DNA from: Nemertoderma westbladi | Lineage: Eukaryota > Animalia > Xenacoelomorpha | Direction of reading: 5' to 3' | Length of the DNA: 64,000 nucleotides | Assembly (NCBI GenBank): GCA_032718475.1 | Contig: JAUCBJ010006899.1 | Coordinates: 21,808-85,807 of the forward strand | Shown: positions 581 through 64,000 of the stretch, piece after piece | How positions within the stretch are numbered: position 1 is the first letter of the stretch | Layout: every line of letters starts with the position of its first letter | The notes under the pieces: generated by a model | Seen by the model: the letters and a program-made list of their open reading frames with translations, nothing else | Told to the model about the DNA's origin: nothing | Database searches by the model: none | Program-made: the position numbers and the translations under genes

Positions 581-2744
581 TGATAAACAACCGCGACCTC
601 TATACTAACAGCAGAACTGTTGAACAGACTAATACCCGTTAATATCCTTCTGCCAACCTAGTAAGTTCTCGTCTAACCAATAAGACACAAAGACTGCTCT
701 ACTGTTAAGTAAAGGGGCTCAGGAGCGTGATATTACTAAATTGTAAGGGTTGCTAAATACAAAACCGCTACTTACCGTTAGATGGCGCTAATCTGCCGTC
801 CGCTAATATATTTACTAATTTTACACAACTCCTGCAAAATCGCTTGTTCCTTTCTCTACCGATTGCTCAATAGAGAGCTAACTGTTCGAATCTATGAGCC
901 ACGCAGGAATAACCAAAACAATAAACCCGAGTCGGCTCCCTAAGCTTACTTAAGACGAGTGCGAGAGGCCTTGCACTCAGAGTATTCTTACGCCTAATTT
1001 TATCACTATTAAAGCACGCTATTACCTACGTCTTTCTAATCGCGAATACTGGGGTTTCTCTAACGTAATGTGTGAATGCGAGAATATTTAAATATCAAAA
1101 TGGTACAGTAATTGTCTCTCGTGGATAGTACCACTCTGGGTCTACAATTGCCTGCAGCTGGCTTTAGGCCAGCAAATCACTAGCGTTTCGTGCGTACCGA
1201 ATAGTGCGTTCTAGCTGATTGCCCGCTAATGCAAATAACTGCTCAGCGTGAATAGTTTACAGTACACTAATTATTACCTTAGCTACTCTCCGCTATGCTG
1301 CGTACTAATTCTTAATTTTTTACTAATTAATTACAGTCACAAATATTTAACAGCGTACTAATTACTAAGAGTTCCAGAATACGTAATTCTAATTTATCAC
1401 GCAACAGGTTTCGCTAGTAATAGCCTAAATTGCCGTATTACTTTGACCTAATCAGTAACTAATTGTTGTAACTAAGAAATAGAAACCAATCAAAGAGAAA
1501 AGAGCGCCTACCTAAACATTCACAATCATAGGCACACTTCAATAACACACCAATCAGCGTTAGAAATCACAGTTTACAATTATGCAATTCACTACTCGTA
1601 CTCCACACTCAACGTTCGAAACGTTATGATACGTGCAGGCCTCTCCCGGGTACATATAGGACTCCTAACTAACCTGATTCCCGCCCCCCTAATACTAAAT
1701 AGAGACGAAACCTGGATCATCAGCCCCCTAATTACCGTACCGGCGATTGGTCTGCGTACCACAGCGTTAACTTCCCGACCGCAACCGTGACCCCACGCCA
1801 GCGTTGCTCGCTTTGAATCCTCCGCTCTCCCTTAGTCGCCCAACCCCCCGATGTGCCCACCGCCCGCTGGCGCCTTAGCCCTCCATTACGCTAATAGCTA
1901 CCGTAGCGGCACATGCAAATCACAAAGTCTGACAGTCTCAGAAATCCCTTAGGATTATTGCGCAGAAAAGAATCACATAGAACCATTAATCAAAGGTAGA
2001 AATCATAGTTCAATTGTAATTAGCAGTAATCGAAGGAATTATTGAGAAACACAAGCAAGTAATCGCACTAGCAAATCATTTCACGAAATTAATCAAATTA
2101 GCAAATTGCAGAAAGTACGATATCCTAATACAAAATTAGAGACAGCTCAACAGCAGTGAGAATGTGTCATGTGAGTGAGAGATTGATGATAGGCTCTACC
2201 GGCACACCGCCAATTTATAGGTGATCCGGGTGGGATGATGCAATAGGGTGACTCAATCGCTCTCCTATTGGCTCTCCAGTCCATGCTAGCATTAGACCAA
2301 CCTGGAAGCAGTTAATCCAATAAGGAGGCCGGATTGTAGCCCTATTGCTCAAATTATTACCATATATGGTAATGGATCACGTCTCTGGCTGCTGAATGGC
2401 CAGGACGGCGTCCCTATGCTAGCCCTATCAAACTAATATCAGCAAGCACAAAATCCAGGGTCCGAGTAAACTCGCTACCCTGGGACTATCTACATATATC
2501 CTAATACAAAATTACGTAGGTAGGGCTACATACTATACAAAATGGATGGTTTCAAATATATGGGCGTTTTGATTTCCCTACCTAAATACCACTGCGTTAT
2601 TATGCCTTATCTAAAATATCATGCTGCACAACGGACTAATATTACGTACAGTATAACGGACTAATATTGCATACTGCATAACGGACTAATACTGCATACA
2701 GTATAACGACTAATAATGTGGATACAGCGCCATATACCGTAACA
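581..2744 (-). repeat. 3' LTR of element 1
   Basis: Direct repeat of 17401-19564; only 4 substitutions seen by eye (1145, 1240, 1786, 1911). Confidence 0.97.
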
Positions 2745-16197: not shown

Positions 16198-17400
16198 ATA
16201 ATCAGTTGGTCCAAAATGTCAAAATAAATTCGCAATGCAATATTGCGAATTTAATGGGGTATATAGTTATAGCAAATACTAGCACAATATTTAAACAAAA
16301 TATTATTATATAGCTACTATATAATATTAAATACCGGTATAGCACAAAATAACTCTGAATCTAATACAAAATATTCAAAATAAACTTGCCGCCCGAATAT
16401 TTCTAATTTTATATATAGCTCTAATCAACGTAATTTTAGTTTCAAATATTATATGTATCCACTAGCGCGTGGCTACATCTTCGGGTTGCGACTCTCTCTA
16501 ACTCTCTCTCTAACTTGAGCGATTCAAAACCATGGCCGGCTAAACCTAAATATCCTAACTAATAAATTGAGTTCAGCTTCGCAGTTAAACAACCGATAAT
16601 TTTTTACTGCTTCCACAAACACACCGGCGCCAACAGAACAACTAACCTTGTTTGCTGTGAGATTCCACGTCCGCGTCCAAAGATTCAGGCCCTTCGCTGA
16701 TTGCAAACCGAACCCGCAGACCCACACGAACCCCAAACTCAGAAGTCCCGTCTTGCCATGTATCTCCAGATGGTATAAAATAACTAAGCGGTTACCTAAC
16801 ATACCGTTACAAAACTCTAGAATTTTACAAATAATTTTGACCGAAACTGAATTCTCGCAAACCTAGCTAATAATTTTCAAAAAACTTACTAATTACAGTT
16901 TGCCCTAAGGCCTAAGGAACTGCTGTATTCGCAATTAGCAAAACGCACTACCGTACATCCACTGTATGCAGTACAGTAAGTAAAACAGTACACCAACCTA
17001 ACAGCCTAATGATACTGTGTGTGGTACGGCAAACAAATGTCCTTCTACCGTACGCAGTAACAGCAATCAGCCTAATGTACTACTGTACTAGTGTACGCAG
17101 CCAGTGAATACAGTAATATAAACTAACAGCCTAAAGGAATATACTCAATGTTCTACCGTACGCTAGCCTATAGCCTACAGCAGACGATCACGTGCTCCAA
17201 TTTATTGCCTAATACTATGATACTACTATCAGCCTAAGAATACTCTATCTGCCTTACTGTACGCAGTACAGCAAAGCAATACAGCACGTATCACTGATAC
17301 AAAGTATCAGTGATCTAAACTAACAGTAGTCTAAACTAACAGCCTAAGAATACTCTATTTACTGTACGCTACAGCCTACAGCAAACAAAACACGTATCAC

Positions 17401-19564
17401 TGATAAACAACCGCGACCTCTATACTAACAGCAGAACTGTTGAACAGACTAATACCCGTTAATATCCTTCTGCCAACCTAGTAAGTTCTCGTCTAACCAA
17501 TAAGACACAAAGACTGCTCTACTGTTAAGTAAAGGGGCTCAGGAGCGTGATATTACTAAATTGTAAGGGTTGCTAAATACAAAACCGCTACTTACCGTTA
17601 GATGGCGCTAATCTGCCGTCCGCTAATATATTTACTAATTTTACACAACTCCTGCAAAATCGCTTGTTCCTTTCTCTACCGATTGCTCAATAGAGAGCTA
17701 ACTGTTCGAATCTATGAGCCACGCAGGAATAACCAAAACAATAAACCCGAGTCGGCTCCCTAAGCTTACTTAAGACGAGTGCGAGAGGCCTTGCACTCAG
17801 AGTATTCTTACGCCTAATTTTATCACTATTAAAGCACGCTATTACCTACGTCTTTCTAATCGCGAATACTGGGGTTTCTCTAACGTAATGTGTGAATGCG
17901 AGAATATTTAAATATCAAAATGGTACAGTAATTGTCTCTCGTGGATAGTACCACTCTGGGTCTAAAATTGCCTGCAGCTGGCTTTAGGCCAGCAAATCAC
18001 TAGCGTTTCGTGCGTACCGAATAGTGCGTTCTAGCTGATTGCCCGCTAATGCAAATAACCGCTCAGCGTGAATAGTTTACAGTACACTAATTATTACCTT
18101 AGCTACTCTCCGCTATGCTGCGTACTAATTCTTAATTTTTTACTAATTAATTACAGTCACAAATATTTAACAGCGTACTAATTACTAAGAGTTCCAGAAT
18201 ACGTAATTCTAATTTATCACGCAACAGGTTTCGCTAGTAATAGCCTAAATTGCCGTATTACTTTGACCTAATCAGTAACTAATTGTTGTAACTAAGAAAT
18301 AGAAACCAATCAAAGAGAAAAGAGCGCCTACCTAAACATTCACAATCATAGGCACACTTCAATAACACACCAATCAGCGTTAGAAATCACAGTTTACAAT
18401 TATGCAATTCACTACTCGTACTCCACACTCAACGTTCGAAACGTTATGATACGTGCAGGCCTCTCCCGGGTACATATAGGACTCCTAACTAACCTGATTC
18501 CCGCCCCCCTAATACTAAATAGAGACGAAACCTGGATCATCAGCCCCCTAATTACCGTACCGGCGATTGGTCTGCGTACCACAGCGTTAACTTCCCGACC
18601 GCAACGGTGACCCCACGCCAGCGTTGCTCGCTTTGAATCCTCCGCTCTCCCTTAGTCGCCCAACCCCCCGATGTGCCCACCGCCCGCTGGCGCCTTAGCC
18701 CTCCATTACGCTAATAGCTACCGTAGCGGCGCATGCAAATCACAAAGTCTGACAGTCTCAGAAATCCCTTAGGATTATTGCGCAGAAAAGAATCACATAG
18801 AACCATTAATCAAAGGTAGAAATCATAGTTCAATTGTAATTAGCAGTAATCGAAGGAATTATTGAGAAACACAAGCAAGTAATCGCACTAGCAAATCATT
18901 TCACGAAATTAATCAAATTAGCAAATTGCAGAAAGTACGATATCCTAATACAAAATTAGAGACAGCTCAACAGCAGTGAGAATGTGTCATGTGAGTGAGA
19001 GATTGATGATAGGCTCTACCGGCACACCGCCAATTTATAGGTGATCCGGGTGGGATGATGCAATAGGGTGACTCAATCGCTCTCCTATTGGCTCTCCAGT
19101 CCATGCTAGCATTAGACCAACCTGGAAGCAGTTAATCCAATAAGGAGGCCGGATTGTAGCCCTATTGCTCAAATTATTACCATATATGGTAATGGATCAC
19201 GTCTCTGGCTGCTGAATGGCCAGGACGGCGTCCCTATGCTAGCCCTATCAAACTAATATCAGCAAGCACAAAATCCAGGGTCCGAGTAAACTCGCTACCC
19301 TGGGACTATCTACATATATCCTAATACAAAATTACGTAGGTAGGGCTACATACTATACAAAATGGATGGTTTCAAATATATGGGCGTTTTGATTTCCCTA
19401 CCTAAATACCACTGCGTTATTATGCCTTATCTAAAATATCATGCTGCACAACGGACTAATATTACGTACAGTATAACGGACTAATATTGCATACTGCATA
19501 ACGGACTAATACTGCATACAGTATAACGACTAATAATGTGGATACAGCGCCATATACCGTAACA
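17401..19564 (-). repeat. 5' LTR of element 1
   Basis: On the element strand starts TGTTACGG and ends GTTTATCA; flanked by TSD TCATG. Confidence 0.97.
19034..19091 (-). promoter_or_regulatory. Putative LTR promoter: CCAAT box (19091-19087) and TATAAA (19039-19034)
   Basis: Consensus motifs in element orientation about 50 bp apart; untested. Confidence 0.45.
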
Positions 19565-41927: not shown

Positions 41928-42343
41928 GACCCCCCTCACATGGAGCAACTTGTTTCTGAAACTTGTTGCTGGCCCCCCTCACACACAGAAACTTGTTGCT
42001 GGCCCCCCTCACACACAGCAACTTGTTGCTCAAGAAAATAACAATTATTCCAAAATAAATGGCTAACATGTCCAGTCATTTATATATAATAATATCAAAT
42101 ATCTCAAATTATCGAATATTAGCTAGTATAAAAATGGAATAAAAGTTTTAAAAAAAGTTGCTGGGAATGTTGCTGGACTCCTTACAAACAGAAACAAGTT
42201 TCAGCAACTTGTTGCTGGACATCTCACACACAGAAACAAGTTGCAGAAACAAGTTGCTGCAACAAGTAGATGCACCAAGTTTCTGTGTGTGAGGGGGTCC
42301 AGCAATAAGTTTCAGAAACAAGTTGCTCCATGTGAGGGGGGCA
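41928..42343. mobile_element. MITE with long TIRs (Harbinger/Tourist-like), copy 1
   Basis: CCCCCCTCACATGGAGCAACTTGTTTCTGAAACTT inverted at the other end; TTA/TAA flanks; internal AACTTGTTGCT repeats. Confidence 0.7.
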
Positions 42344-45091: not shown

Positions 45092-45507
45092 GACCCCCCT
45101 CACATGGAGCAACTTGTTTCTGAAACTTCTTGCTGGCCCCCCTCACACACAGAAACTTGTTGCTGGCCCCCCTCACACACAGAAACTTGTTGCTCAAGAA
45201 AATAACAATTATTCCAAAATAAATGGCTAACATGTCCAGTCATTTATATATAATAATATCAAATATCTCAAATTATCGAATATTAGCTAGTATAAAAATG
45301 GAATAAAAGTTTTAAAAAAAGTTGCTGGGAATGTTGCTGGACTCCTTACAAACTGAAACAAGTTTCAGCAACTTGTTGCTGGACATCTCACACACAGAAA
45401 CAAGTTGCAGAAACAAGTTGCTGCAACAAGTAGATGCACCAAGTTTCTGTGTGTGAGGGGGTCCAGCAATAAGTTTCAGAAACAAGTTGCTCCATGTGAG
45501 GGGGGCA
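45092..45507. mobile_element. MITE with long TIRs, copy 2 (within the tandem duplication)
   Basis: Duplicate of 41928-42343. Confidence 0.7.
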
Positions 45508-47298
45508 TAAAGCCTGAGCTGGTGAGGGTTTTAGATTTTGCCTCTTAATAGGGACTTTTCTCTCGCCTTTCTAGCTGCTATATCTATATTAACAGAACCG
45601 ATATACATTGCACAACCAGTTCTTTGGTCCAGGAGGAAGTCCAGTTATTTTAGATACATTTTGCAAGATTTGTTACATTTGCAGCTATTAACTGGGACTT
45701 TAAAGATGCAGCTGCACATGTCAAAGAGCTACTCGGACCCGTTCTCGAAAATTGCAAGCTTTTCTTTAAAGGACGGTTTCTCAAAACAATCTCTGTAGTG
45801 CTTTATCAAAGTTTGATATTTCTCATAGTAGGATTTTATAAGCTGAACTATACAAGTTACCAAACAGTTGGAATGGAAGCCATAGGCCATATTGAAATAA
45901 CCTTATCAGCGAGAGTTTGAGAAGATTTCGAATTTCGCAACCCCTCCAGTTCATCTTTGACAAATAGTAACATTTAATTACATCTTTCTGCATTGGCAAA
46001 ATATTCGTTTTCAAATTTTATGAATTTTCGAATAATATTAGGTGATCCTCAGGTTTTGATCTTAATTCCATGAACTGAACTTATTATAAAATCTAAAAAA
46101 ATTACTAGGGAGTGGCAACATCACATCACCACTATAATAATTACATTTATTTGTTGCTATAGACATAGATAATGCAAACACAACTTAAAATATATGGAAA
46201 AGGTTTCTAAATACAAATCGGTGTAGTAACTAAATATTGCAGATATGCAATTTAATCATATTTCACTCTATTATATAAAATGCCTTTATAGGCAGAATAT
46301 TGGAAGGATTTTATTAAATTTTATAATATTTTTTAGCAATTTGAAGGTGCTAGTGGAAACTTTTTGAAATATTTTTTAAAAGAAAAGCTTTATCTTGTTA
46401 CTAATCAACTTTTTTGAGCTATCAGAAGTCGAAATTTATGTAAATTTTATGAGTTTATAAAATTTTGAAATCTGAACATTTGAAGGTGCTGGGAGAACAA
46501 AACACAGTGTTTTTTACATTTTTTAATAGAAAGTCCTATATTGTGACTCCAGAACTAACTTAAAACAAAAGTTGGTCAATAATTATCTATAATAATATGT
46601 AACATAACATAACATAACATAACATATACAGTATATAGCAACGTGATAAGGATACTGAACTTGAGAGAAACGAAATTATGACAACTATGGAGAATCGGGA
46701 AGCCTGGAAGGATCTCATTTCCACTGTCAGAGTTCGCTTGACCTAGTAAAATAGTAGCAACTAATATGTAACAATATATCATGATTGATACAAATACAGT
46801 GGGATATTAAACATTGAACCCAAGGGCATTCCCACAAAACATGAGTAGTGCTTCGGTCTGAGGGTTACCACATTTACATACTGTAGGCAAACGATCCTAT
46901 GGAATACGATTCCAATGCCCCAACCTCAACAGTCAAGGTTAAGTAGATAGCAATATATATTCTTTAATCCAGGCCTATGCCCATAAAATATTTAGTTATT
47001 GCAAAGAAACAAAACGGGTACCGGTACGTAACATAAACAAAATGCAGTAGTTATTTAATAGCACAGCAGAACAAAATAATATCAGCAATAGATAGCGAGT
47101 CCATAATTTGCCGTGTGACTCTACAATACCTTGTATAATGTGTCTAATTCTAGGAAATCAAAATGCACCTTATTTGTTTGTTATATACATAGACTTCGTT
47201 AAGGCTTATGATAAGTGTTCTTGTATGAAGTTAATAATAGAGTTAAAACGAGTAGGCTGAAGCAAACAGAAGCGTTATATGCTATTATTGCAAGTGAT

Positions 47299-49179: not shown

Positions 49180-49991
49180 ACTACTACTACTACTAGGATC
49201 GGCATGCTGCATTGCAGCTGCATTTTTAAGAATGCTGTGCCGGCTTGTCAACAAAATTGCACCGCCACAACTCCCTATCACCCATGACATTTGCTAGATC
49301 ATCCGCATCTTCAAGGCCAGTGTCCTTTAGGATGCGTCTCAAGAAAGTCATGGGCTGTCCACCATGCTTATTCACGCCATGAGGCTGCCAAAGTACAAGA
49401 TTATGCACTGGCTGGTCCTCACGGCGAAAGCAATGTCCTGCAAAGTGGAGGCGATTTTGTTCTAGTGTCAAGCTTGGGGGAACCAATGAGACACCTCCAA
49501 TGTTATATAGTGTCTGGTTGGAGATGTGTGCATTGTACTTGACACAATGAACCCGGCGTAGCATTCTTGTGAATGTGCCATCCAGAGATTTGGTGTCCTC
49601 AGCAGTTAGAGCCCAGCATGGACTCCCGTAGAGGAGTACTGGAACTACTGCTGCTCTAAATAATCGGACCTTAAGTTTCCGATTAATTCTCGGTGACTTC
49701 CAAATCCTGGAAAGCCTATTCAAGGCTGCCCATGCCTTTCCTTTACGTATTCGAAGGTCCTCACCTGACTTCCGGATCCATGATCCCAGGTAACAGAAGT
49801 CGTCCACATGCTCAAGCATACCATCCTTTGAGCTTATGCTCATCCGATCAGAGACTTGCTGAGGACTTTCAAAGTTAACTGTCAGAATTTTGGTCTTTCT
49901 GGAGTTAATAAAAAGACCAACACTAGAAGCAGCATGTTCTAATGAGCTGAGAAGCCGTTGGGCTCCCTCTTATGGCTCCCGCTATTATTCC
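49180..49991 (-). mobile_element. 3' part of an RTE-clade LINE, interrupted by element 2
   Basis: ORF 49226-49843 with FCYLGS, KVRLFRAAVVPVLLYG, RLHFAGH; upstream frame GLFINSRKTKIL; (TAG)n 3' tail at ~49180-49197. Confidence 0.85.
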
Positions 49992-50522
49992 TGTTAGCTT
50001 ATTCAATCCCGCTAACACCCCATAAAGTTATAAGCCGATAAGCAATATTGGGAGCCACGAGATTGGGCAATTAACCAACTCGTGCCATCCCAATAAGAGT
50101 GGGAAGGAAGCACACAATAAAGGGTCAGGGGCCGAACCCCTAACCCAGAGAGTACAGGTGGAGTGAACGGGAACACTCCACGGGGCGCCAACAAGGGTAT
50201 CAACCAATCAGAGGGGGGCAAGGCATCGATTGAGTAGAGCAATAAGGCCACCGTGCAATATAACCAGTAACACAATGTCAGTAATTCAGTTATCTCAGTG
50301 CAGTGTAGGTTAGTTAGTTTAGATAGGGGAGCATGGGACTTTAGTTACCGTATCCGCCTTCCGTATATTATACTACAGTCATCATATCTATATCTTATAT
50401 CTATCAATTATTATACACCGAATATCAGAACTCATTCACTATTTCCGTTTACTCTTTATACACGGCGGGGACGCGTAAACTAAACACCGGATAAATCGGG
50501 ATCCCTCCTGGATCCCGTCACA
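49992..50522 (+). repeat. 5' LTR of element 2 (end at 50522 inferred from ...GTCACA)
   Basis: Matches 63501-64000 up to 50490 with about 4 substitutions and 1 indel; true 3' end cannot be confirmed in this window. Confidence 0.8.
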
Positions 50523-50590
50523 GTAACTAAATCAGCTGCCGCCCTAGATAAACTCAATAATCAACTAGCACCGAAATCTGCAGAAGAGAG

Positions 50591-53500
50591 ATGAGTCAGT
50601 CAGGTGACATGACACCGACGCGGACCCCGGACGAAGACCAAATGATCCATGAGGCCGCAACCAGGCGATACAGACCCACGACACCGCAGCCATCGATAAC
50701 GGGCGAACCGGAAGTTCAAGACGAGGGGAGCCTGGAACAAGAGGTCGAGCCAAGAGGAAGGGAGAGCGAGACAGAGGGAGACGGAGATGAGTCGACACGG
50801 GACGGAGATCGGCGCACCGATGTCGCCGGCCAGCTACAGGCCGAGGGCGACGAGCGGCCCACCGAAACGGCGACGGTGGGGCCGACGGTGCGACGCCGGA
50901 CGCGAAGAGACGGAGGAGACATCGGTACCGATGTCGCCGGCCAGCTACAGGACGAGGGCGACGGACGGCCCACCGGAACGGCGACGGTGGAGCCGCCGGT
51001 ACGACGTCGAACCCGGAGGGACGGAGGAGAGGTCGGCGACGAGGACGTCGGGGTTTCAGAGCGACTTCGACGGGCCTACAACGCGACCCGGAAGCTGATA
51101 AAGGACGCCAAGAAGGAAGGGGCGAAGGTAGACGAGGTGAGACTGAGAAAGCGACTAGGTGAGTCGGATAGACACTTTAATTACCTAATACGTTTTGGGC
51201 AGAGAGAACTAGCCGAGGAGAGAGCAAAAGGGGTTGCCGGCGAACTGTTTGAACTATGGGAGTGTGGGAGTATGGAACCTAGCGTAGCGCCAGTGTACAT
51301 AGGGCCATACTTGGTCGATGCCCAGGGAGCAAAATTAGTGGGTTGGAGGGGACCCGAGGGGGGCGAATCCGAGGTTAACCCCGAGGATTCGGCCTCGTCG
51401 GTCGGAGAAAGTTCCGGGAAGCGGGGAAAAGTTAGTAGGTCGGGAAGGCGGAGGGGGTCCGCTGTAACCGATAAGTCTGCTACATCCTCCGCGAAAGAAA
51501 GAGTGGTGAGAGAGATAGGTGCCGCATACCGTCTCAGCATGGTAGAACAAGGTCAGAGGGAAATGGAGGAACGGTTAGAGGAGGGGAGAGTGCGGTTAGC
51601 GAGGGAAGCGGCATTGATTAGAGAAACCGGAGAGAGGGCCGAAAGGGCTTTGAGAAGCCTTAGGGAGTGTGAGGAAATAGAAGAAATTATTTTATGTATT
51701 TTTGGGGAGCCGGGGGCCGTAGATACATTTATTGATACCCCACTGACAGGGACCGTGCGACAAACCCAAAACTGGTGTGACCGTACGGGCGGGGGGGGCA
51801 ATGTCAATAATGATACAGTAGACGTTGTTAATGTTGATAGTACCGTATGGGACAACTCTAATCAAACCTTTATTACAGGGAATACTTTACCTAGTGGTAG
51901 TAATTTAAATTTAAATCAGAACGTTCCTAATATTAATGTAGAAAATAATTCTAATATTAACGTAGTTACACAAAATAATTCAAATAATTTAAATAATGAT
52001 CCAAGCCCGAATTTACAAAATAATTCAAATGATTTTATTTCGAACGAACAAATTAATTTTATTTCGAACGAACAAATTAATTTTATTTCGAACGAACAGA
52101 TTAATTCCGTTTCCAATATGGGTGCTATTAACGTGAACACGTCGGGCGTGTATAGCCAGACAAACGGGGGCCTGGAAGGCCACGTAGTTGGTAGGCAGGG
52201 GGTGGCTGGGTTGAATAGACCCAGCGAGGGCCTGGTAGGCCACATAGTCAGTAGGCAGGGAGTAGTTGGATTAGATAGACCCAGCGAGGGCCTGGTAGGC
52301 CACACAGTCAGTAGGCAGGGAGTAGTTGGATTAGATAGACCCAGCGAGGGCCTGGTAGGCCACACAGTCAGTAGGCAGGGAGTAGTTGGATTAGATAGAC
52401 CCAGCGAGGGCCTGGTAGGCCACGCAATAGCAGAGAGAGAGGCGGGGGTGAATAGACCCGACCGCGATAGGCTTGATGTGTCGACTGGAGAGGGATATAG
52501 TAGCGGGGTGAGGAGTAGCGAAGTTAGATGTGGCGAATGGGGGGGGGGGGGGGCTACGAGAACCCCACAACAGCGAGTTAGCGGCAAAAAGGGGGGGGGC
52601 AGAGAGTGTCCCACAGCCGTCAGCGGATAATGCGAGGGCCGAAATAGGTAAACCGCAACAACCGGCGACGGAAAGTAATAGGGGGATTGCGAGTATCCCC
52701 AGCGGCGTGCGACCGAGCAGGGAGAGACAGGTTGACGTCGTAAGAGGGCGGACGAAGCGTCGAGCCCGATCAGAAGAGGGAAGAAGAAGAGTGGGGTTTA
52801 ACCGGGAGGTCGGCGAGAGATCTCACGAGCGGGAATACTCCACTGAAAGGAGAAGAAGAGAAGACAGTAGTAGAGGTATCGCCGCGAACGATAGAAGAGC
52901 GAGGACGGATAGCGAGCCGCCGGTAGTTGAGATGAGAACGGAGAGTCAGTGGGGTCGGACTCCGGGAGATTGCCGTCGCCTCGGAGAGATGCGACCCGGC
53001 GAGGCGCACTACGCGCCGAGAGAGGGGTACGCGATGTACCGGTACAAAGATGAGAACAGTAGAGAGGGGGGTCGAAGAGAAACTTTCCGACGGGATATAC
53101 CTATGGATCGAGAATACGGTAGCCGCGGGGAGGATTATTCGAGAAGAATAAACTTCAATCCCGAACAACACATGCAGACTGTAGGACATACTGTAGGCCT
53201 TACTGCACATACCGTAGGCCATACTGAGAGAGGCAATGTAGGCGATGGGATAGCGTGGACAACGGGATTGAACCCGGAAGTCGCGGAATACATACCGGCG
53301 GGTAGGCCAGAAGCTGATAGGCCTATACCGGTATCAGCACAGCAGTATGACTACAGCATGCAGGGACATAACATATACCCAGGGGAGGGGGGAATTATTG
53401 CGGATAGGTGTATGGGCCCCAACATATTAACATCAACCCCAGTACCAAACATACCGGTGGGGGGGGGACAGGGTGACATTCCCCCATCACAATATCAACA

Positions 53501-53624
53501 ATATACCCCGATAGTAGCAAGAACAACGAGACCCTTGGACGAAAACAGGTCGTGTGACACAGCATATATGGAGGGGGCCGCTACCCCCGATGACATACCC
53601 AAGCCAGAGAAAGTCAAGAAATAG
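50591..53624 (+). CDS. Element 2 N-terminal Gag region, low-complexity, split across frames (50591-52630 and 52530-53624)
   Basis: Frame change at G15 run 52539-52553; internal 24-bp (NFISNEQI x3) and 60-bp (GLDRPSEGLVGHTVSRQGVV ~x4) repeats. Confidence 0.65.
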
Positions 53625-56600
53625 GACAGACGGAACGCACCAGACAGGTGAAACTATACAGCACCCGTCGAATCCATTGGAAGCGCAGGCGATGGGGATG
53701 GCCACATTGATCGATGCGTTGAAAACGAGGATCGAGCTACCACCCGTGGAACCATTCAAATTCGATGGGAGTAGGCCGGAAGAATATCTACAGTTTCGGC
53801 GCATGTATAGTAACGAAATACTAACAAAAAACTTGACGCAGGCGGAGTGCCTAAAGTATCTACAAGTGTACACGGGAGGCCCAGCCTACGACATCGTGAG
53901 GCAATATCAGGGAATAGAGGGCGGCTTCACGACAGCATGGCGGGCATTGGATAGGGAATACGGGCACCCGGCCAAGATCATCAGGCAGACGCTGAGGGGC
54001 ATAACGTCGGGTGGCCTACAGGATAATCCTGTTAGCATTAAGACGTTCGCTAACAAAGTCGAAAAGGCGCTAATCGTGCTGAAGACGCTAGACGCGCCGT
54101 ACGAGCTCAATGCGTCCAACAACATCACCACGATAGCGCAGGCACTACCAAACTGGCTGCGCAACAAGTGGAGGAAAATTGCCTTCTCCACTCGAGATAA
54201 GAAGGGTGCGGAACCGGGTTTAGAAGAAATGTCAAACTTCTTAAACTACGAGGCTGAACTAATAACTGACCCAGTCTATAGCGAAGACAGCCTGGGAAAG
54301 GGACCGAAGACAGACTACCATAGACCGAAACCAGAGCACAACACATCGAACGCATTACCGAGACTCAGGCAATCATTGCCATATGCAGCGACGCAGGGGA
54401 CTGCAAGTCCACAGCTAGCCGAGGATAAGACAACATCATGGAACGGACAGGGAAACAATAACAGCACAAATAAACATAACCCCAGTACGTCCAGTAGGCA
54501 AAACCCAAACAATAAGAATAGTAGGGACTTCGGTACGAACGCAACCGCGATACGCAATGCACTGTATAAAGAAGGCTACGACCCAAAGAGCAAATGTCAG
54601 CTACACGCAAATGCGCTTCATCAAACTATGAACTGCAGGTACTGGCAGGCGCTACCCAGGCAGGATCAGATAGATTATGCGTTCAGCAATAAAATCTGCT
54701 CGCGATGTGTAATGAGTGGACATAGAGCAAGGGAGTGCAAGGAGAAGCCAATGAAATTTGGTCAAAGGAGAGGCCAAACGATGGCGACGAGCACAGTAGG
54801 GGCGAAGAAGAGGGGAACGGTGCTACTTGGAGTAGTACCAGTGCGAGTGATCGGGGAAGGCAATCGATCAGTAACAACACTAATGCTGGTTGATAGTGGA
54901 GCTGCCTTCACATTAGTCGAGGAATGGGTGGCCGTGGAGATAGGATTGAGAACGAGGCCGAGCAGGATGGCGGTAACAACCATCTCTAGCAAAGATGAGG
55001 TCCTGGAGATGAGAACAGGACGGTGCGCAATTGCAGCAGTGGCACCAGGATGCGACTATGGGGCAACCATCGACCCCATTCAAGTGATAGAGTCAATTAA
55101 TATCAATGCCAGGCGGCCAACCAACATCGAGGTTGAGCAGTACAAATTCCTGGACAACATTGACTTCTCAATCCCAGACGTGGACGTTAGGAAGGTATCC
55201 ATCATAGTAGGTATGGACTGCCCAACAGCCCACGAAAGAATGCAAACGGTCTTCGGCGAAGACAAGCAGAGTGACCCGGTGGCCATATTAACACCATTCG
55301 GGTGGACGCTGAGTGGTCCAATTAAGAGCAAGATACCATTTGGGATGTCGGAGACATCAGGATGCATGTTCGCGGGAACAATGCAGGAAATGGGTGACGA
55401 GGGAGCAGAAGAGCAGCTTAAAAGACTGCTCAGACAAGATTTTGAGGGACTGAAACAGACAGGGGTCGGGACCTCAGTAGAAGACAAGCAGGCTCTACAA
55501 AGCGTGGAGGAATCAATGAGATGCGATGAGGGACGGTATACTATAGGAATGGTATGGAAACTACCGAAGATACCGCTGCCCGACAATAGGGGGATGGTGC
55601 TCACGAGACTCCGCAAACTGAAACAAGCACTAAAACGGAGCCCCGAGAAGAATGAGTACATCCACAGAACAATTAAGAAGTACGTCGAGAAAGGATGGGC
55701 CGTGGAGTTACCGGTCGACGAGCCGAACACGGATAGGACATACTACCTGCCACTACACGTGGCTTTAGATCCAAAGAAAGGTAAACTAAGGATGGTAGTC
55801 GACGCATCGGCAAAGACCGACGGGAAATGCTTAAACGACTACCTGTTAGAAGGCCCAAACATATACAATTCGGGCATAGAGGTGTTACTTAGATTTCGAA
55901 ATGGGAAACACGCCTTCACGTGTGACATAGAAGGCATGTTCAACCAAGTCCGTGTAACGGAAGAAGATAGCGACAGTCAACGCTTCTTATGGTATAACGG
56001 CGAGGAAGAACCGCCGATAATACCAGCATATAAGATGGTAGTACAGAACATGGGGGCCAAGTCGTCTTCATTTACGACGACTATGGCAGTGAGAGACACA
56101 GTAAAGGGGAAGGAAGATAGATACAGCAGTAGGGCCGTCGATATGATTCGACGCGGCTTCTACGTAGACGACGGAATGGAGTCTGGAAATACGGTTAAGG
56201 AGATACTGGACACAGGGCGCGAGGTTCGCGACATCCTAAAAGGATCCGGCTTTAACCTGACCAAATTCCAATCCAGTTCAGAAGAATTTATTAAGGCGAT
56301 AGAGGACAGGAGACCAGAATCGACCATGGACAATCCCACAACAGCCAAAGGGCAGGACATGGCGATTAAGAGAACAGAATCTCAACAGAAGGCATTGGGA
56401 ATCGTGTGGGATAGAGAGACAGACGAACTGAAGTATCAGCTGAGCCAGGAGGGCGCAGACATCCACACGAAGAGGGGCTATGTATCGTATATAGCAAGGA
56501 TATACGATCCCCTAGGCCTAGCATCCCCATTATTAGTCACGGGGAAACAGATACTCAAGAGAGTATACAAATTGAAAGATGAGTGGGACGTAGAGGTACC

Positions 56601-58800
56601 AGAGGAAATCAAGAAACAGTGGAGCAAGTGGACAGGAGACTTGGAGAAGATGGGAACATACAACATGCCACGGGTGTATTTCCCGGATGGGAACATGACG
56701 AATCTGGACCTACACATGTTCTCCGACGCGTCGTTGGAAGCGTACGGAGCGGCACTCTACTTAGTACAACGAGAAGGGGCTCATAAGCCAAGGCTAGCCT
56801 TTAGCAAAGCAAAGTCAACGCCGCCAGATTCAGCATCTGTTCCCAAGTTAGAATTGACAGCTGCGAGACTAGGAGTAAGAGCCACAGCCTACCTAGTGGA
56901 TACTATTCCCAACATAGTGGAGACACACTACTGGACGGACTCCATGGTAGTGCTTGGTTGGCTACACAACGAAAAGACGAGATATCCGATATTCGTCGCG
57001 AATAGAGTGGACGAAATAAGGGCGAGCACAGAACTGGAAAGGTGGCACTACTGCCCAACAGACGAGAACCCAGCGGACTTGCTGTCGAGGGGCGTGGAAC
57101 GCCACACTTTCCTGAAGAAGGAAGTATTGTGGCAACATGGGCCACAATTTCTGAGCGATAGGGAGGCCTGGCCGCCGATGAGGAAGGTGGACCCGGGCTC
57201 GGAAGTAGTATCAGAAGGAGAAGAGGGAGATTCAGAGGGAGAAGAGATATACTCCCAGATGGTGAGGGAGATTAGGGACGTGCAACCAGGAAGGGAACTG
57301 TGCGATAACCCAACGGATAAACTCCTCAGCTACAGTTCTAGTTGGTATAAGACCAAGAAACTAGTGGCGTATTGGAGAGCCTTCGGGAATTTCCTTGCGG
57401 GAGTCGGCAAGGACAAGAAAATCAGGACAACCATAGATCTGGAGGGAGCGGCCAAGGCAGTGATCCGCTATGAACAACGGAAGAACTACGGCGACGAGGT
57501 GGAACGCGTCGGTAACCAACAGCACCTCCGACGGGACAGCGAGCTGATTACGCTGTCGCCACAACTCAATGACGACGGGATTCTAGTAATGAATTCTAGG
57601 GTGGGATACAACAATAGCATAGTCGTACCACCGAAACCCATCATCATTCCTACAGGATCGCCAATAGTCCACCAGATTATATGGGACTCCCACAAATCGA
57701 TATTGCACGGGGGCACCAACCGAACCCTCACAGAGATAAGGAGGACCTATTGGGTCAAACAATTAAGGAAGAAGGTTAAAGCGGTAGTGGGGCAGTGCCA
57801 GACCTGCCGACGGGCGAAGAAGGAGCGAGCCATACAGGAGATGGCGCCACTACCGGCGAGTAGGGTAAGACAGCACGACCCGCCATTTACGCATTGCGGT
57901 GTGAACATGTTCGGGCCGATAAAGATCAAGGTGATGCGACACACGGAGAAACGCTACGGTATTATCTTCGTATGCAACAATACGCGGGCGGTAGGGATAG
58001 AACTCGCCCAAGATGCAACCGCATCAGCGTTCATTAACGCCTTAGAAAGGTTCAGGGACCGCAAAGGTGGGACGATCGCAGTGATATACAGCGACAACGG
58101 CACCAACTTTGTGGGCGCAGAGAGTGAAATGGCAGAGGCCTTAGACATCTTGGAAGGGGAAGAAGTCAGGGCAGCCATGAGACGACGAGAGGTAAAGTGG
58201 GAGAGAAGGACGCCGTATGCACCACATACACTAGGATGCGTCGAGAGACTGGTGGGCAGTTCAAAGCGTCTAATGACAAAGCTAATGAACACCCACATGG
58301 TCACTGAGGACGTCTTACGGACAGTACTTGCGAAGTGCGAGGGGATCATTAATAGCAGACCGCTATATCCGGAGAATGACGACCCTGAGTCACTAGACGT
58401 GTTAACGCCTAGCCATTTCCTAATGGAAAGACCAGCGACCATCGATATGCGGGGTGTAGACCCAGATGACATACACTCCCGCCAAAGTTGGAAAATCGCA
58501 AAGGCAATAAGCGCTGAGTATTGGAGGAGGTGGGTCGAGGAATACCTACCCACGCTCCATAAGCGAAGCAAATGGAGGAAACCGAACAGGGAGTTAAGAG
58601 CAGGAGATCTTGTAATCGTTACGGATGATACTATCATCAACAACCAGTGGCGGTTGGCGAGAGTTGTAGACACCTACTCCGACGAGGACGGAAGAGTCCG
58701 ATCGGTAGAAGTGCGGATAGGTGGAAAGATAGGTGCGAAGGACAGAAAAACCTACAAGAGAGCAGTAGGGAAATGCTGTCTTCTAGAAGGGGCACCTTAG
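53554..58800 (+). CDS. Element 2 Gag-Pol (Gag core, Zn knuckles, protease, RT, RNase H, integrase with D->N at the first catalytic residue)
   Basis: FKFDGSRPEEY; CSRCVMSGHRAREC; LVDSGA; YYLPLH, CDIEGMFNQV, FYVDDG; FSDAS, WTDS, NPADLLSRG; H..HGG..CQTC, GVNMFGP, YSDNGTNF, VERLV. Confidence 0.95.
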   Translation: MTQHIWRGPLPPMTYPSQRKSRNRTDGTHQTGETIQHPSNPLEAQAMGMATLIDALKTRIELPPVEPFKFDGSRPEEYLQFRRMYSNEILTKNLTQAECLKYLQVYTGGPAYDIVRQYQGIEGGFTTAWRALDREYGHPAKIIRQTLRGITSGGLQDNPVSIKTFANKVEKALIVLKTLDAPYELNASNNITTIAQALPNWLRNKWRKIAFSTRDKKGAEPGLEEMSNFLNYEAELITDPVYSEDSLGKGPKTDYHRPKPEHNTSNALPRLRQSLPYAATQGTASPQLAEDKTTSWNGQGNNNSTNKHNPSTSSRQNPNNKNSRDFGTNATAIRNALYKEGYDPKSKCQLHANALHQTMNCRYWQALPRQDQIDYAFSNKICSRCVMSGHRARECKEKPMKFGQRRGQTMATSTVGAKKRGTVLLGVVPVRVIGEGNRSVTTLMLVDSGAAFTLVEEWVAVEIGLRTRPSRMAVTTISSKDEVLEMRTGRCAIAAVAPGCDYGATIDPIQVIESININARRPTNIEVEQYKFLDNIDFSIPDVDVRKVSIIVGMDCPTAHERMQTVFGEDKQSDPVAILTPFGWTLSGPIKSKIPFGMSETSGCMFAGTMQEMGDEGAEEQLKRLLRQDFEGLKQTGVGTSVEDKQALQSVEESMRCDEGRYTIGMVWKLPKIPLPDNRGMVLTRLRKLKQALKRSPEKNEYIHRTIKKYVEKGWAVELPVDEPNTDRTYYLPLHVALDPKKGKLRMVVDASAKTDGKCLNDYLLEGPNIYNSGIEVLLRFRNGKHAFTCDIEGMFNQVRVTEEDSDSQRFLWYNGEEEPPIIPAYKMVVQNMGAKSSSFTTTMAVRDTVKGKEDRYSSRAVDMIRRGFYVDDGMESGNTVKEILDTGREVRDILKGSGFNLTKFQSSSEEFIKAIEDRRPESTMDNPTTAKGQDMAIKRTESQQKALGIVWDRETDELKYQLSQEGADIHTKRGYVSYIARIYDPLGLASPLLVTGKQILKRVYKLKDEWDVEVPEEIKKQWSKWTGDLEKMGTYNMPRVYFPDGNMTNLDLHMFSDASLEAYGAALYLVQREGAHKPRLAFSKAKSTPPDSASVPKLELTAARLGVRATAYLVDTIPNIVETHYWTDSMVVLGWLHNEKTRYPIFVANRVDEIRASTELERWHYCPTDENPADLLSRGVERHTFLKKEVLWQHGPQFLSDREAWPPMRKVDPGSEVVSEGEEGDSEGEEIYSQMVREIRDVQPGRELCDNPTDKLLSYSSSWYKTKKLVAYWRAFGNFLAGVGKDKKIRTTIDLEGAAKAVIRYEQRKNYGDEVERVGNQQHLRRDSELITLSPQLNDDGILVMNSRVGYNNSIVVPPKPIIIPTGSPIVHQIIWDSHKSILHGGTNRTLTEIRRTYWVKQLRKKVKAVVGQCQTCRRAKKERAIQEMAPLPASRVRQHDPPFTHCGVNMFGPIKIKVMRHTEKRYGIIFVCNNTRAVGIELAQDATASAFINALERFRDRKGGTIAVIYSDNGTNFVGAESEMAEALDILEGEEVRAAMRRREVKWERRTPYAPHTLGCVERLVGSSKRLMTKLMNTHMVTEDVLRTVLAKCEGIINSRPLYPENDDPESLDVLTPSHFLMERPATIDMRGVDPDDIHSRQSWKIAKAISAEYWRRWVEEYLPTLHKRSKWRKPNRELRAGDLVIVTDDTIINNQWRLARVVDTYSDEDGRVRSVEVRIGGKIGAKDRKTYKRAVGKCCLLEGAP

Positions 58801-59750: not shown

Positions 59751-60239
59751 GAGAGAGAGAGTAAGAGGTAGAAGGGTATATAAGATATAGATATTAGTTA
59801 GCAGTTAATAGAGAGAGGGGGGCATATGAGCACAGCTGGATAAATCGTGTGGCCACACGACGAATACTGCTGTACTGCATGGGCCCACAGAGTAGGCCAG
59901 AATGTGGATTAGGGAATAGAATAATCCATAGGCAGTAGTAAGTAGTAGGACAGTAGAATCAAATTAAAAATAGATAAATAAATAGAATAGGGCTGAAAGT
60001 TGTAAAATGGTGGCAACATAAGGGAAGTTATTCTAGAACATAATAAAAGTAACGGACAGAAATTGTAAATTACGCTCATTTACTAGCTTCGAAATTAATT
60101 AGGAATAATTTAGGTTAAAAGGCGCAGTTAAGTAGAAGTAGGCCATTATCGAACTGTACAGAACATCCTAGATACATCACTCATCTGTATTGCGCCTTGG
60201 TAAGGCACCACCTTGCAGGTGAGCGAGTGAACGTTCGGA

Positions 60240-62789
60240 ATGGCGAGTAAGTTGATCAGAAAGAGAAAGGCGGAGTCAGGAGGAAAGGAGATACTGGTGG
60301 ATTTCACCGAGAGACATCCGGAAGAGAAGACGAGAGGATACTACGAGAGGTTGGAAAGGGGTCACGCGGCACGAGCGCTGCAGGATCACTTCCGGGAGGC
60401 GCACGAACAGCGGCTGGTCGGGACCTACGGGACCCCCTCGCTAGACAACGCGATCTTCCAACACTTCCACTACGTAGTGAAAGGGGACGAGGCGAAATTC
60501 GGGATTCCGAAATACCCGAGGGAATCACCGAGGAAGGACTGGAAAAGATTCATAGAGTCCGTCAACAGAGGAGGATATATGATCCTAGATGACGAGGGAA
60601 CCGTGGAAGACGAAGCGGGTTCGAGACGAGGAACGGCAGGGTCGGCCAGGACCATACTCCTACATTTGGCTGCGCCAAATGGGGACATCTTCTTATTCGA
60701 TCTAGGAACGTATGGGAAGAAGGACGGGCCGAAATTAGACCGATTACCGAAAGCGGTACAAGTCTTAGTAAGAGAGAAGTCGACGACGAAAGTGGGATCG
60801 GCGATTCGCGAGGACGCGGAGAGGATCATCGGTCCGGACGCCACCAACCTCCTGGATATGCAGAAAGTCTTTATGGCTATGACGGCACCGGATGGATTGG
60901 GGGTAGTCGGAAACACAGGCCAATGCGGGGCGGTGGCAATGGGCCAATTATTGGGGCTCGTATGCCACAAACCGATGGACTGGGGAAAGTTTAGGGAAGA
61001 ATACGGGGCAGAACTAGCGAACTCGCTAAAGTGGGGAGCGAGACCAGGAAAGCAGGAGGTATATCAATTCCGCAGAGGAGCGATAAAGGTATATCAGAAG
61101 CGATATATCCTGCAGGAAGACTGGATCATGATAAGTTTGCTTAACTTATTTATGACCGTGGTTATCGAGAGGGAACCAGGGGCATTTCTGTTATCGGGAT
61201 CACCCCTAAGCTACAGGAGAGCCTTTAAAGTGGCCTTCGACGGTCTGGTAGACCACCCGGGGCTGAAGGGCGAGTCGGTATACTATAACAGCCGGCATCT
61301 GGTAGACGGGGAGACAGATACACCGTATCAGAGATGGGAGCAGCTAGAAGCGGATAGACGAGAAGCAAAGCGACTGGAAGAAGTCGCCAGACGGGAGAGG
61401 ATAGAAGCAGAGGAGAGGGAAGAGGAGGCCAGGACACAGAGTTACGGCTTCGAGGAACAGGCAGGCCTAGATGAACTTCATTGCACTTCATCAGGGAGTT
61501 CGGGGGAGTCTCTAGGGCGAGAATTGGGATGGACGGTGGGATCACCGAAACAGTCGACGTCAGGGTTGCAAACGATGCCCATACCAGCGGGCGCCGAGGG
61601 CGACCAACTGCCAAGGAAGTTAAGGGAGCTAGAGGGATGGAGAGCTACGGGCGAGAGCCAAGGCGGGAAGGGACATAGTGGATCCATCGGGATACCGGGG
61701 TTGGAAACACTACCAGAAGAGGAGGACGACGGCGACGAGTTCGGAGAGATGCCGCCCATCGAGAGGATAGGCCACTCGGACACGGACTGGGTTGGCGGAA
61801 GGGTGGTGACGGCCAGTGGGGCGAGGGCCTTCTGGAACAGATCCGGCAAGCGGACCTGGGTGCACGAGGAGCCGGCGATGGATTTCGCGGGGAGCACCAT
61901 CAGGTTGGGCGAACAACCGGGGACGGCACCACGGATAGTATTCGGGGAGACGATGCCCGAGAGGGGCGGAGAGATCGATGTAGATAGAGAGGCCAACGTA
62001 GAGAAGTTCGCCTACCAGCGACTCCACAGACCGCGGAGATCGCTTGGGACGAAGGACGAGGTGGGACGGGAGACATTGGTACTCGGCTGCGACTATTGTG
62101 GGAGACAGACCCACCAAGAAAAGAATTGCCTTTACCGGTTCCAAAAGGGAACTTTTTGTCTCTACTGCCGAGAACAAAGCCACAGGATGGGGGCGTGCCC
62201 ATGGTTGCATAATCGATGTACAAAGTGCCACTTTCGGGGACACTACGGACGCGAGTGCGACTGGATGAACGACGAGGAGAAATTCACAAGGTTCGAGGAG
62301 TGGGCCGACGTCGGGGCTATGACGCGCCAGCGCATGAAGGCCCAGGAGTTTAAGTGGGGTTTCTTCCTTATCAATCAGGAGACTCACATGGAAATCATAA
62401 AGCGGAGGCTACCGTTTACCTACCAAGAGGTAGCAACGGCGGCGTCGTACGCTGGAGTGATGAACACGCAAAGGTATCTGGACAGGTGGACGCCAGACAA
62501 CCGAAGGGAGTTTAGGGATTTCTTGGCGGAGCACGTACCAAAGGCAATGAAAATGATCCTATGGGACGCCACCAGAGGGAGACAACCGGGCCACTCTGAG
62601 GGGCCACCGGCGAAGCGATATCGGGCACTAATAACACCAGCGCCCAAGGAGCCAACGACCGGGATCAGCAGGGAGGTGGCGGCGAAGGTCCGAAAACAGA
62701 AGGCGGATAATGCCAGAGGAACGGTGATAACCAAGAAACGACCCAGGGAAGAGGACGCCAGGGGGAACTACCCCCGGAGGAACAGATAG
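60240..62789 (+). CDS. Element 2 accessory ORF3: DEDDy-like 3'-5' exonuclease + acidic linker + triple CCHC knuckle + basic tail
   Basis: Intact 849 aa; ExoI ILDDEG, LLHLAAPNGDIFLFDL, LPKAVQVLV..KVGSAIREDA (ExoII), LLDMQ, QKRYILQED (ExoIII); CDYCGRQTHQEKNC, CLYCREQSHRMGAC, CTKCHFRGHYGREC. Confidence 0.85.
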   Translation: MASKLIRKRKAESGGKEILVDFTERHPEEKTRGYYERLERGHAARALQDHFREAHEQRLVGTYGTPSLDNAIFQHFHYVVKGDEAKFGIPKYPRESPRKDWKRFIESVNRGGYMILDDEGTVEDEAGSRRGTAGSARTILLHLAAPNGDIFLFDLGTYGKKDGPKLDRLPKAVQVLVREKSTTKVGSAIREDAERIIGPDATNLLDMQKVFMAMTAPDGLGVVGNTGQCGAVAMGQLLGLVCHKPMDWGKFREEYGAELANSLKWGARPGKQEVYQFRRGAIKVYQKRYILQEDWIMISLLNLFMTVVIEREPGAFLLSGSPLSYRRAFKVAFDGLVDHPGLKGESVYYNSRHLVDGETDTPYQRWEQLEADRREAKRLEEVARRERIEAEEREEEARTQSYGFEEQAGLDELHCTSSGSSGESLGRELGWTVGSPKQSTSGLQTMPIPAGAEGDQLPRKLRELEGWRATGESQGGKGHSGSIGIPGLETLPEEEDDGDEFGEMPPIERIGHSDTDWVGGRVVTASGARAFWNRSGKRTWVHEEPAMDFAGSTIRLGEQPGTAPRIVFGETMPERGGEIDVDREANVEKFAYQRLHRPRRSLGTKDEVGRETLVLGCDYCGRQTHQEKNCLYRFQKGTFCLYCREQSHRMGACPWLHNRCTKCHFRGHYGRECDWMNDEEKFTRFEEWADVGAMTRQRMKAQEFKWGFFLINQETHMEIIKRRLPFTYQEVATAASYAGVMNTQRYLDRWTPDNRREFRDFLAEHVPKAMKMILWDATRGRQPGHSEGPPAKRYRALITPAPKEPTTGISREVAAKVRKQKADNARGTVITKKRPREEDARGNYPRRNR

Positions 62790-63491: not shown

Positions 63492-63500
63492 GGGGGGGAG
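63492..63500 (+). other. Polypurine tract of element 2
   Basis: GGGGGGGAG directly abutting the 3' LTR TG. Confidence 0.85.
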
Positions 63501-64000
63501 TGTTAGCTTATTCAATCCCGCTAACACCCCATAAAGTTATAAGCCGATAAGCAATATTGGGAGCCACGAGATTGGGCAATTAACCAACTCGTGCCATCCC
63601 AATAAGAGTGGGAAGGAAGCACACAATAAAGGGTCAGGGGCCAAACCCCTAACCCAGAGAGTACAGGTGGAGTGAACGGGAACACTCCACGGGGCGCCAA
63701 CAAGGGTATCAACCAATCAGAGGGGGGCAAGGCATCGATTGAGTAGAGCAATAAGGCCACCGTGCAATATAACCAGTAACACAATGTCAGTAATTCAGTT
63801 ATCTCAGTGCAGTGTAGGTTAGTTAGTTTAGATAGGGGAGCACGGGACTTTAGTTACCGTATCCCGCCTTCCGTATAATATACTACAGTCATCATATCTA
63901 TATCTTATACCTATCAATTATTATACACCGAATATCAGAACTCATTCACTATTTCCGTTTACTCTTTATACACGGCGGGGACGCGTAAACTAAACACCGG
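63501..64000 (+). repeat. 3' LTR of element 2 (truncated by window end)
   Basis: Direct repeat of 49992-50490. Confidence 0.95.

Follow-up and report, generated by a model that had tools for sequence, protein, structure and literature searches.

Every LTR retroelement requires a minus-strand primer, the 3' end of which pairs beside U5. In Tf1, the self-primer consists of the first 11 bases of the mRNA, and the 1998 work of Lin and Levin is reportedly a further source on self-priming in Tf1 and Tf2. Tf1, Tf2 and their relatives (the Tf1/sushi group of Ty3/gypsy) are the LTR retrotransposons described as self-primed, according to the accessible parts of two papers (PMC6317226, PMC6934838). For plant elements of the Tcn1 clade (Ty3/gypsy) and the TAR lineage (Ty1/copia), self-priming was predicted from sequence, as given in the accessible part of PMC6317226. 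For BEL/Pao elements, the ICTV profile of the Belpaoviridae gives tRNA priming, the primer site being 18 bases long and complementary to the 3' terminus of tRNA-Arg or tRNA-Gly (PMC8742986). A tRNA-Tyr site is given for the BEL/Pao element Achilles in the available excerpt of PMC4580426 and, likewise from an excerpt, a tRNA-Asn site is predicted for a BEL family of Anopheles. The main text of a BEL/Pao survey contains none of the words PBS, primer binding or tRNA (PMC3118150). In the full-text literature outside the subscription journals, PMC5443660 and PMC3601003 included, we found no paper that ties BEL/Pao to self-priming in the portions of text available.

The stretch of DNA analysed in this study (hereafter the window) is 64 kb long and contains two BEL/Pao LTR retrotransposons, E2 on the plus strand and E1 on the minus strand. 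The features of E2 are as follows.

49987..49991, plus strand: candidate target-site duplication ATTCC, left copy only, directly preceding the LTR start
49992..50522, plus strand: 5' LTR of 531 bases, TGTTAGC...GTCACA, with a putative end
50259..50291, plus strand: predicted promoter from a reading of the sequence, TATAA at 50259-50263 and TCAGTT at 50286-50291, spacing 29 bases
50591..52630, plus strand: ORF1, 679 aa, repeat-rich, ATG at 50591, no Pfam family
53554..58800, plus strand: Gag-Pol ORF, 1748 aa, with Pfam families and one CCHC knuckle
60240..62789, plus strand: 3' ORF, 849 aa, with three CCHC zinc knuckles and no Pfam family
63492..63500, plus strand: polypurine tract GGGGGGGAG, abutting the 3' LTR start
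63501..64000, plus strand: 3' LTR, cut by the window end at LTR position ~500 of 531, with a second copy of the LTR arm (see below) at 63849-63857

The Gag-Pol ORF of E2 carries Peptidase_A17 (E = 3e-40), Integrase_H2C2 (3e-12), DUF5641 (9e-25), DUF1759 (1e-10) and Asp_protease_2. The nearest database proteins, among the best 120 of 1268 matches with E <= 1e-20, are about 35% identical to E2 Pol and carry PF05380. The two LTR copies (49992-50490 and 63501-64000) share 99% identity across the 500 bases contained in the window. E2 shows part of the BEL/Pao LTR hallmarks, namely the TG start, the polypurine tract and the left flank. Tandem repeats are present between Pol and the 3' ORF (a 36-base unit over ~750 bases, 59039-59794) and within ORF1 (60-base units at 52165-52464 and, early in the ORF, two 111-base units at 50816-51037).

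The 3' ORF of E2 matched no Pfam family even at E up to 5, and a sequence search of the PDB returned only zinc-knuckle matches, with E about 1. A weak atlas match to a 3'-5' exonuclease family has a score (0.84) in a range often reached by shuffled proteins, and no function is claimed. A 3' ORF with three CCHC knuckles follows Pol both in E2 (60240-62789, plus strand) and in E1 (3234-4619, minus strand). The two ORFs are weakly alike (23% over 163 aa), and none of the searches found an envelope-like protein in them. Elsewhere in the window, a 3.16-kb unit is present in two head-to-tail copies that are 99.6% identical (40678-47004). A ~163-base repeat forms an array at 38404-39097 (region 38404-39206), and the window start (1-320) is 94% identical to it over 320 bases.

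The LTRs of E1 and the features discussed below are as follows.

17401..19564, minus strand: 5' LTR of 2164 bases, TGTTACGG...TTTATCA, 99.8% identical to 581-2744
581..2744, minus strand: 3' LTR, from the LTR comparison
18446..18456, minus strand: LTR arm GCACGTATCAT, 1045 bases before the LTR end, with a second copy at 1626-1636
17390..17400, minus strand: predicted primer binding site GTGATACGTGT, forming 11 pairs with the LTR arm, -14.6 kcal/mol
17285..17298, minus strand: second copy of ATCAGTGATACGTG (the last 4 LTR bases plus the site) in the leader, 102 bases downstream

E1 has TG..CA LTR ends and a verified 5-base duplication, CATGA, at 19565-19569 and 576-580. Its Pol is split (8707-14652 and 7703-8680, minus strand) and carries Peptidase_A17 (4e-38), DUF1759 and DUF5641. 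The Pol proteins of E1 and E2 are about 28% identical.

E1 and E2 have in common with canonical BEL/Pao elements the Pol domain set, the TG..CA LTRs, the 5-base duplication and the polypurine tract. They differ in the primer site. No TGG tRNA-type site is present in the first bases after the 5' LTR of either element, and the ICTV-type tRNA site of about 18 bases starting with TGG is found in neither, whereas three relatives (L093, L095 and L098) do have a TGG tRNA site. E1 and E2 resemble Tf1 and Tf2 in having no tRNA-type site and in having, beside the 5' LTR, a site complementary to their own putative R region. The two systems belong to different superfamilies. The Pfam families of E1 and E2 (Peptidase_A17, DUF1759, DUF5641) are those of BEL/Pao and place them outside the Tf1/sushi clade of the Ty3/gypsy chromoviruses.

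The 3' LTR of E2 is cut by the window end. We place the end of the 5' LTR at 50522 because of the terminal CA, the LTR ends of relatives, a drop in contig depth and a loose end. The LTRs of the two-LTR relatives terminate in ...ACA, followed by GT. In three DNA sequencing runs of one organism, the E2 family was found in thousands of contigs, and its depth in contigs, which is to be read as presence only, falls about five-fold from the bin 50494-50520 to the bin 50521-50547. One contig of the family has a loose end that reads ...CCCGTCACA and is followed by unrelated sequence. The missing end of the 3' LTR is predicted to read ...GGATAAATCGGGATCCCTCCTGGATCCCGTCACA, followed by the left-flank pentamer ATTCC. 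The insertion target of E2 (49900-49980) is a very abundant repeat; in run X1 its contig depth sums to 1-2 million, about ten times the LTR depth.

The pairing in E2 involves two short segments.

50340..50348, plus strand: LTR arm TTTAGTTAC, an exact reverse complement of 50523-50531 and predicted to form the 3' end of the self-primer
50523..50533, plus strand: predicted primer binding site GTAACTAAA(TC), directly 3' of the LTR, with no TGG nearby

An earlier note on this DNA had read ...GTCACA up to 50522, followed by GTAACTAAATC, and the sequence agrees. It had also claimed that 50523-50531 is exactly complementary, in reverse orientation, to TTTAGTTAC, which occurs at 50340-50348 and in a second copy at 63849-63857, and that the pairing can be extended to 11 pairs with one bulged C. 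Both claims were borne out. The exact 9-pair helix, at offset 0 from the LTR end, has an energy of -7.3 kcal/mol, and the 11 pairs with C50339 bulged have -8.8 kcal/mol. The note had named a TGG tRNA site at the junction as the observation that would count against its reading; none was found near the junction of E2 or of E1. The exact helix of E2 is short and AT-rich. When all internal positions of E2 were used as mock sites, a helix at least as good was found at 65 of 12957 (0.5%). Exact 9-mer complements occurred at 35 of 12968 mock sites in E2 and at 128 of 14646 in E1.

No variant fell within 50340-50348 or 50523-50531 among the best 40 of 100 substitutions and 12 of 53 insertions or deletions in the family contigs. 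The contig depth of the E2 family (presence only) is high at 50305-50358 and 50440-50547 and low at 50359-50439, which suggests that the arms and their adjoining stems are better conserved than the enclosed stretch. Run X6, labelled "RNA?" and from another organism, covers 49992-50303 only and then diverges, and is uninformative on the transcript start. We consider it probable that the pair of 50523-50531 with 50340-50348 is the minus-strand primer site of E2, at which the element's own RNA would replace a tRNA.

In E1, the helix consists of 9 Watson-Crick pairs flanked by two G.U pairs, 11 pairs in all, and starts at the first base after the LTR. The pair at the priming end is thus G.U. A helix at least as good was found at 117 of 4879 sampled mock positions (2.4%), with an LTR of 2164 bases. 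The junction reads CA|GT in both elements, as the earlier note had stated. Its statement that the complement meets the first base after CA is correct for E2. In E1, the exact 9-mer TGATACGTG, complementary to CACGTATCA (LTR positions 1110-1118), begins one base past the LTR end, and the first base is reached only through the G.U pair. In the E1 leader, the second copy of ATCAGTGATACGTG is half buried in a perfect 9-pair hairpin (17299-17319, minus strand), and a third, decayed copy lies near 17119-17191.

Relatives were collected with a 12-protein alignment, which yielded 99 BEL/Pao loci, 80 of them in metagenome contigs and the other 19 in contigs catalogued as bacterial or archaeal genomes. 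A two-sequence alignment found no relatives in metagenome contigs, and neither alignment found BEL/Pao relatives in viral contigs. Self-comparison detected distant direct repeats in 30 of the 80 metagenome loci and in several of the 19 others. In 16 of the 99 loci, the 5' LTR end is fixed by a second LTR copy that runs into different sequence; together with E1 and E2, these make a set of 18 elements. L093 and L098 lie in a record titled as a Wolbachia endosymbiont chromosome, and the other loci from L081 to L099 lie in bacterial or archaeal MAG records. The complete animal BEL/Pao elements in records filed as bacterial or archaeal are probably host DNA in the assemblies.

An exact complement of at least 9 bases to the LTR, at an offset of 0-4 from the LTR end, was found in 7 of the 18 elements (expected 0.185, P about 2e-10). 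When E1 and E2 were left out, it was found in 5 of 16, where mock sites gave an expectation of 0.145 (P about 2e-7). These five (L039, L035, L045, L030 and L012) have a complement of 9-12 bases, 86-278 bases before the LTR end. The three relatives with a tRNA-type site (L093, L095 and L098) read TGGTCC... at the LTR end or 4 bases after it. No LTR complement of 7 or more bases was found in these three, which supports reading the pairing as one between the LTR and a primer site, and no TGG site was found at the LTR end in the other 13 of the 16 loci.

These counts bear on the possibility that the pairing is an inverted repeat that arose by chance. In any one element such a match is not negligibly rare, as the mock-site frequencies of E2 and E1 indicate. 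The joint probability for E1 and E2 is about 1e-4, and the independent loci replicate the finding at the level given above, with letters that covary. The earlier note judged it unlikely that chance would give two divergent elements distinct 9-mers in the same arrangement, and this judgement is strengthened by Pol proteins of low identity and by recurrence in independent BEL/Pao loci. A chance origin seems to us extremely improbable.

When the helices were aligned in register, the first two pairs were invariant (G-C, which is G.U in E1, and U-A). Columns 3-9 show 2-4 pair types each. Between sister elements in the Pol tree, compensatory changes were counted as 2 for L039/L035, 2 for L045/L030 and 3 for L012/L038. 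The survey of related elements for covariation, which the earlier note had proposed, therefore gave a positive answer, sister elements included. A quick maximum-likelihood tree of the RT region separates the 3 TGG elements from the 15 others by a branch whose SH-aLRT support is 95%. In this tree, E1 and E2 sit on long branches, and their exact placement is unsure.

The invariant pairs could also be explained if the partner of the site were a host RNA, for instance a fragment from within a tRNA or a small RNA ending in ...UAC, like the half-tRNA primers of some copia elements, the match to the LTR being secondary. The site always begins with GT, the sites are A-rich in most elements, and the ICTV profile calls the family tRNA-primed (PMC8742986). 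Past the first 2-4 bases, however, the sites differ from one another and fit the LTR of their own element, and sisters show compensatory changes. E1 and E2, moreover, share one genome and yet differ in the site, and neither has a TGG. We therefore regard a host RNA primer as quite improbable.

The position of the arm in the transcript was considered next to the poly(A) signals. All 7 metagenome loci examined have an AATAAA or ATTAAA inside the LTR, 14-129 bases downstream of the arm. Since a poly(A) signal follows the arm, the arm would lie in R in these loci. In E1 and E2, no canonical poly(A) signal was found after the arm, only variant hexamers. As in Tf1, a post-LTR site complementary to the element's own LTR arm is present in E1 and E2, and placement of the arm in R is backed in the 7 relatives and not in E1 and E2 themselves.

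RNA folding of E2 involves four further segments.

50349..50358, plus strand: 5' strand of a predicted stem adjoining the primer helix, pairing with ~50465-50476 in minimum-energy folds
50476..50486, plus strand: near-copy of the primer site, GTAAACTAAAC, inside the LTR, a competing partner of 50340-50348 in the fold of 50337-50545
50497..50517, plus strand: 8-pair hairpin just before the LTR end, present in all folds and in the deepest-covered LTR part in contigs
50532..50597, plus strand: leader with imperfect pairing to LTR 50284-50339, up to the ORF1 ATG at 50591, from duplex energy against shuffles

In folds of E2 that begin upstream of the arm (50288-50600, 50200-50700 and 49992-50900), all 9 primer-site pairs are present in the minimum-energy structure, with probabilities of 0.26-0.36, and the primer helix directly abuts the stem of ~50349-50358 with 50465-50476. 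In folds that begin at the arm, none of the 9 pairs is formed, and the arm takes the near-copy at 50476-50486. The duplex of 50335-50360 with 50460-50490, which includes the near-copy, has an energy of -24.4 kcal/mol, against -7.3 for the primer-site helix. The near-copy may be the partner in an alternative conformer. For E1, the helix closes the minimum-energy fold of RNAs of 1077 and 1080 bases that start at the arm or 3 bases before it, and 0 of its 11 pairs form in three longer contexts. Since the outcome depends on the assumed start of the RNA, folding is neither proof nor disproof of the helix. The predicted second stem directly beside the primer helix of E2 would, if formed, be a further likeness to Tf1 and Tf2; the folds that contain it are context-dependent.

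The complementarity of E2 is not confined to the short helix. The duplex of 50283-50348 with 50523-50597 has an energy of -47.7 kcal/mol, whereas shuffled sequences gave -28.8 +/- 4.2 and none of 500 was as low. The flanks alone were matched by 1 of 300 shuffles. This pairing of LTR 50284-50348 with the leader up to the ORF1 ATG resembles the U5-IR and U5-leader stems of retroviruses. Retroviral U5-leader stems flank the tRNA site. In E2, by contrast, there is no tRNA site, and the helix is strongest at the predicted primer site.

The extended pairing raises the possibility that the complementarity is a long-range leader structure, serving packaging, dimerisation or translation control like retroviral U5-leader pairing near the gag start, and not a primer. 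The E2 complementarity does run on, with imperfections, over about 65 bases that reach from 50284 to the ORF1 ATG, the arm does have a stronger partner inside the LTR, and the folds vary with context. In eight other elements, however, 6, 11, 49, 56, 98, 209, 225 and 275 of 300 shuffles were as low as the extended duplex, so that it is clear in E2 only, marginal in L004 (6/300) and L030 (11/300) and absent in six others. The part that is conserved is the short helix, with its anchor 0-4 bases away from the LTR end. This helix is missing in the relatives with a TGG site, and the elements that have it offer no other candidate primer site. A leader structure without a priming role is thus unlikely, although we give it more weight than the other alternatives. 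The extent of the duplex, together with TATAA at 50259 and TCAGTT at 50286, suggests that the E2 transcript starts near 50288, about 52 bases upstream of the arm, which would then be internal, like the arm of the relatives with the spliced form described next.

Five relatives have a complement of 11-15 bases that exists only across a GT..AG junction inside the LTR. A split complement was defined by GT after its left part and AG before its right part, at the true site. They are as follows.

L071: 15 bases, intron of 76
L035: 14 bases, intron of 117
L012: 11 bases, intron of 175 or 186
L038: 11 bases, intron of 168
L081: 11 bases, intron of 388

The donor is GTAAG in 4 of the 5 LTR introns, and a pyrimidine tract precedes the acceptor in all 5. 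At K = 11, the search matched L071, L012, L038, L081 and L045, and L035 needs K = 14. The match of L045 is probably due to chance, since a contiguous 12-mer is already present in this element. Mock sites gave an expectation of 0.13 elements, and the probability of 4 or more is 3e-6. Contiguous and spliced forms together give a complement in 11 of the 15 elements without a TGG site. Neither form was found in the remaining four, L028, L054, L080 and L062; the LTR ends of the last three are poorly defined. L028, which is sister to L081, retains the donor and the sequences of both exons, and its acceptor reads GG. In E1 and E2, no GT..AG split complement of at least 10 bases was found, and both have the contiguous form.

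The LTR copies of two relatives differ by such introns. In L035, the 5' LTR copy (1-214) equals the 3' copy (6935-7265) minus exactly the 117-base intron, and the flanks are identical. In L004, the two exons are joined in the 3' LTR copy (6924-7103), where the junction yields an 11-base complement, and the 5' copy (145-326) has a pyrimidine tract and CAG at the junction point. Because intron-less LTRs thus exist as DNA, we argue that spliced RNA was reverse-transcribed. We do not claim a single insertion with two different LTRs, since metagenome assemblers may mix LTR variants. We give about even weight to the wider view that a BEL/Pao lineage dropped tRNA priming for priming by its own RNA, that in many members the primer requires removal of an LTR intron by the spliceosome, and that E1 and E2 are intron-less descendants copied from spliced RNA, in which the former junction is now a contiguous arm.

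The motif T[CT]AGT is present at the 5' edge of the arm in 6 of 10 elements. Its interpretation as a transcription start motif was withdrawn for L012, L035, L038 and L071, where it is better explained as a 3' splice site or intron sequence. A scan of loci without two LTR copies, which took no LTR boundary as given and accepted a complement of at least 11 bases or a split complement of at least 12 after any CA, was positive in 22 of the 55 regions upstream and in 26 of the 55 control regions within the ORF, and does not discriminate.

A Tf1-like self-priming mechanism in BEL/Pao would seem the most economical reading, since these elements offer no tRNA site and yet have a conserved, covarying helix at that very place. 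In E2, the LTR arm would sit in the repeated (R) part of the transcript and would fold back onto the post-LTR site, or pair with it on a second copy of the RNA. The RNase H of the element would cut after C50348, giving a primer RNA that ends in ...UUUAGUUAC, and the new 3' OH would be extended into U5, with A50522 copied first. Such an extension would account for the exact coincidence of the helix start with the LTR end. If the transcript begins upstream of the arm, probably near 50288, the primer would carry a 5' tail, in contrast to the Tf1 primer of 11 bases at the very 5' end of the RNA. We infer the priming, the cut, the transcript start and the R/U5 borders of E2 from sequence analysis.

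The proposed mechanism differs from that of Tf1 and Tf2 in several respects. The E2 helix has 9 pairs, the arm is probably internal to the leader, and an exon-exon junction is present at the arm in some relatives. It resembles the Tcn1 and TAR cases in that self-priming is deduced from sequence across a whole lineage, as described in the accessible part of PMC6317226. Those are plant elements of other superfamilies, and an intron-dependent form is not mentioned in that part of the paper (PMC6317226).

Experimental studies of self-priming concern the Tf1 group, and a few plant lineages are predicted to use it. BEL/Pao is the third large superfamily of LTR retrotransposons, an ICTV virus family, and is described as tRNA-primed. 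If true, a self-primed BEL/Pao lineage would correct this description, and would be a second independent origin or retention of self-priming that can be compared with Tf1. It would also account for the failure of tRNA-site search tools on many animal BEL/Pao elements, and would give annotators a simple test. The intron-dependent form in the relatives would, in turn, tie the start of retroelement replication to splicing by the host.
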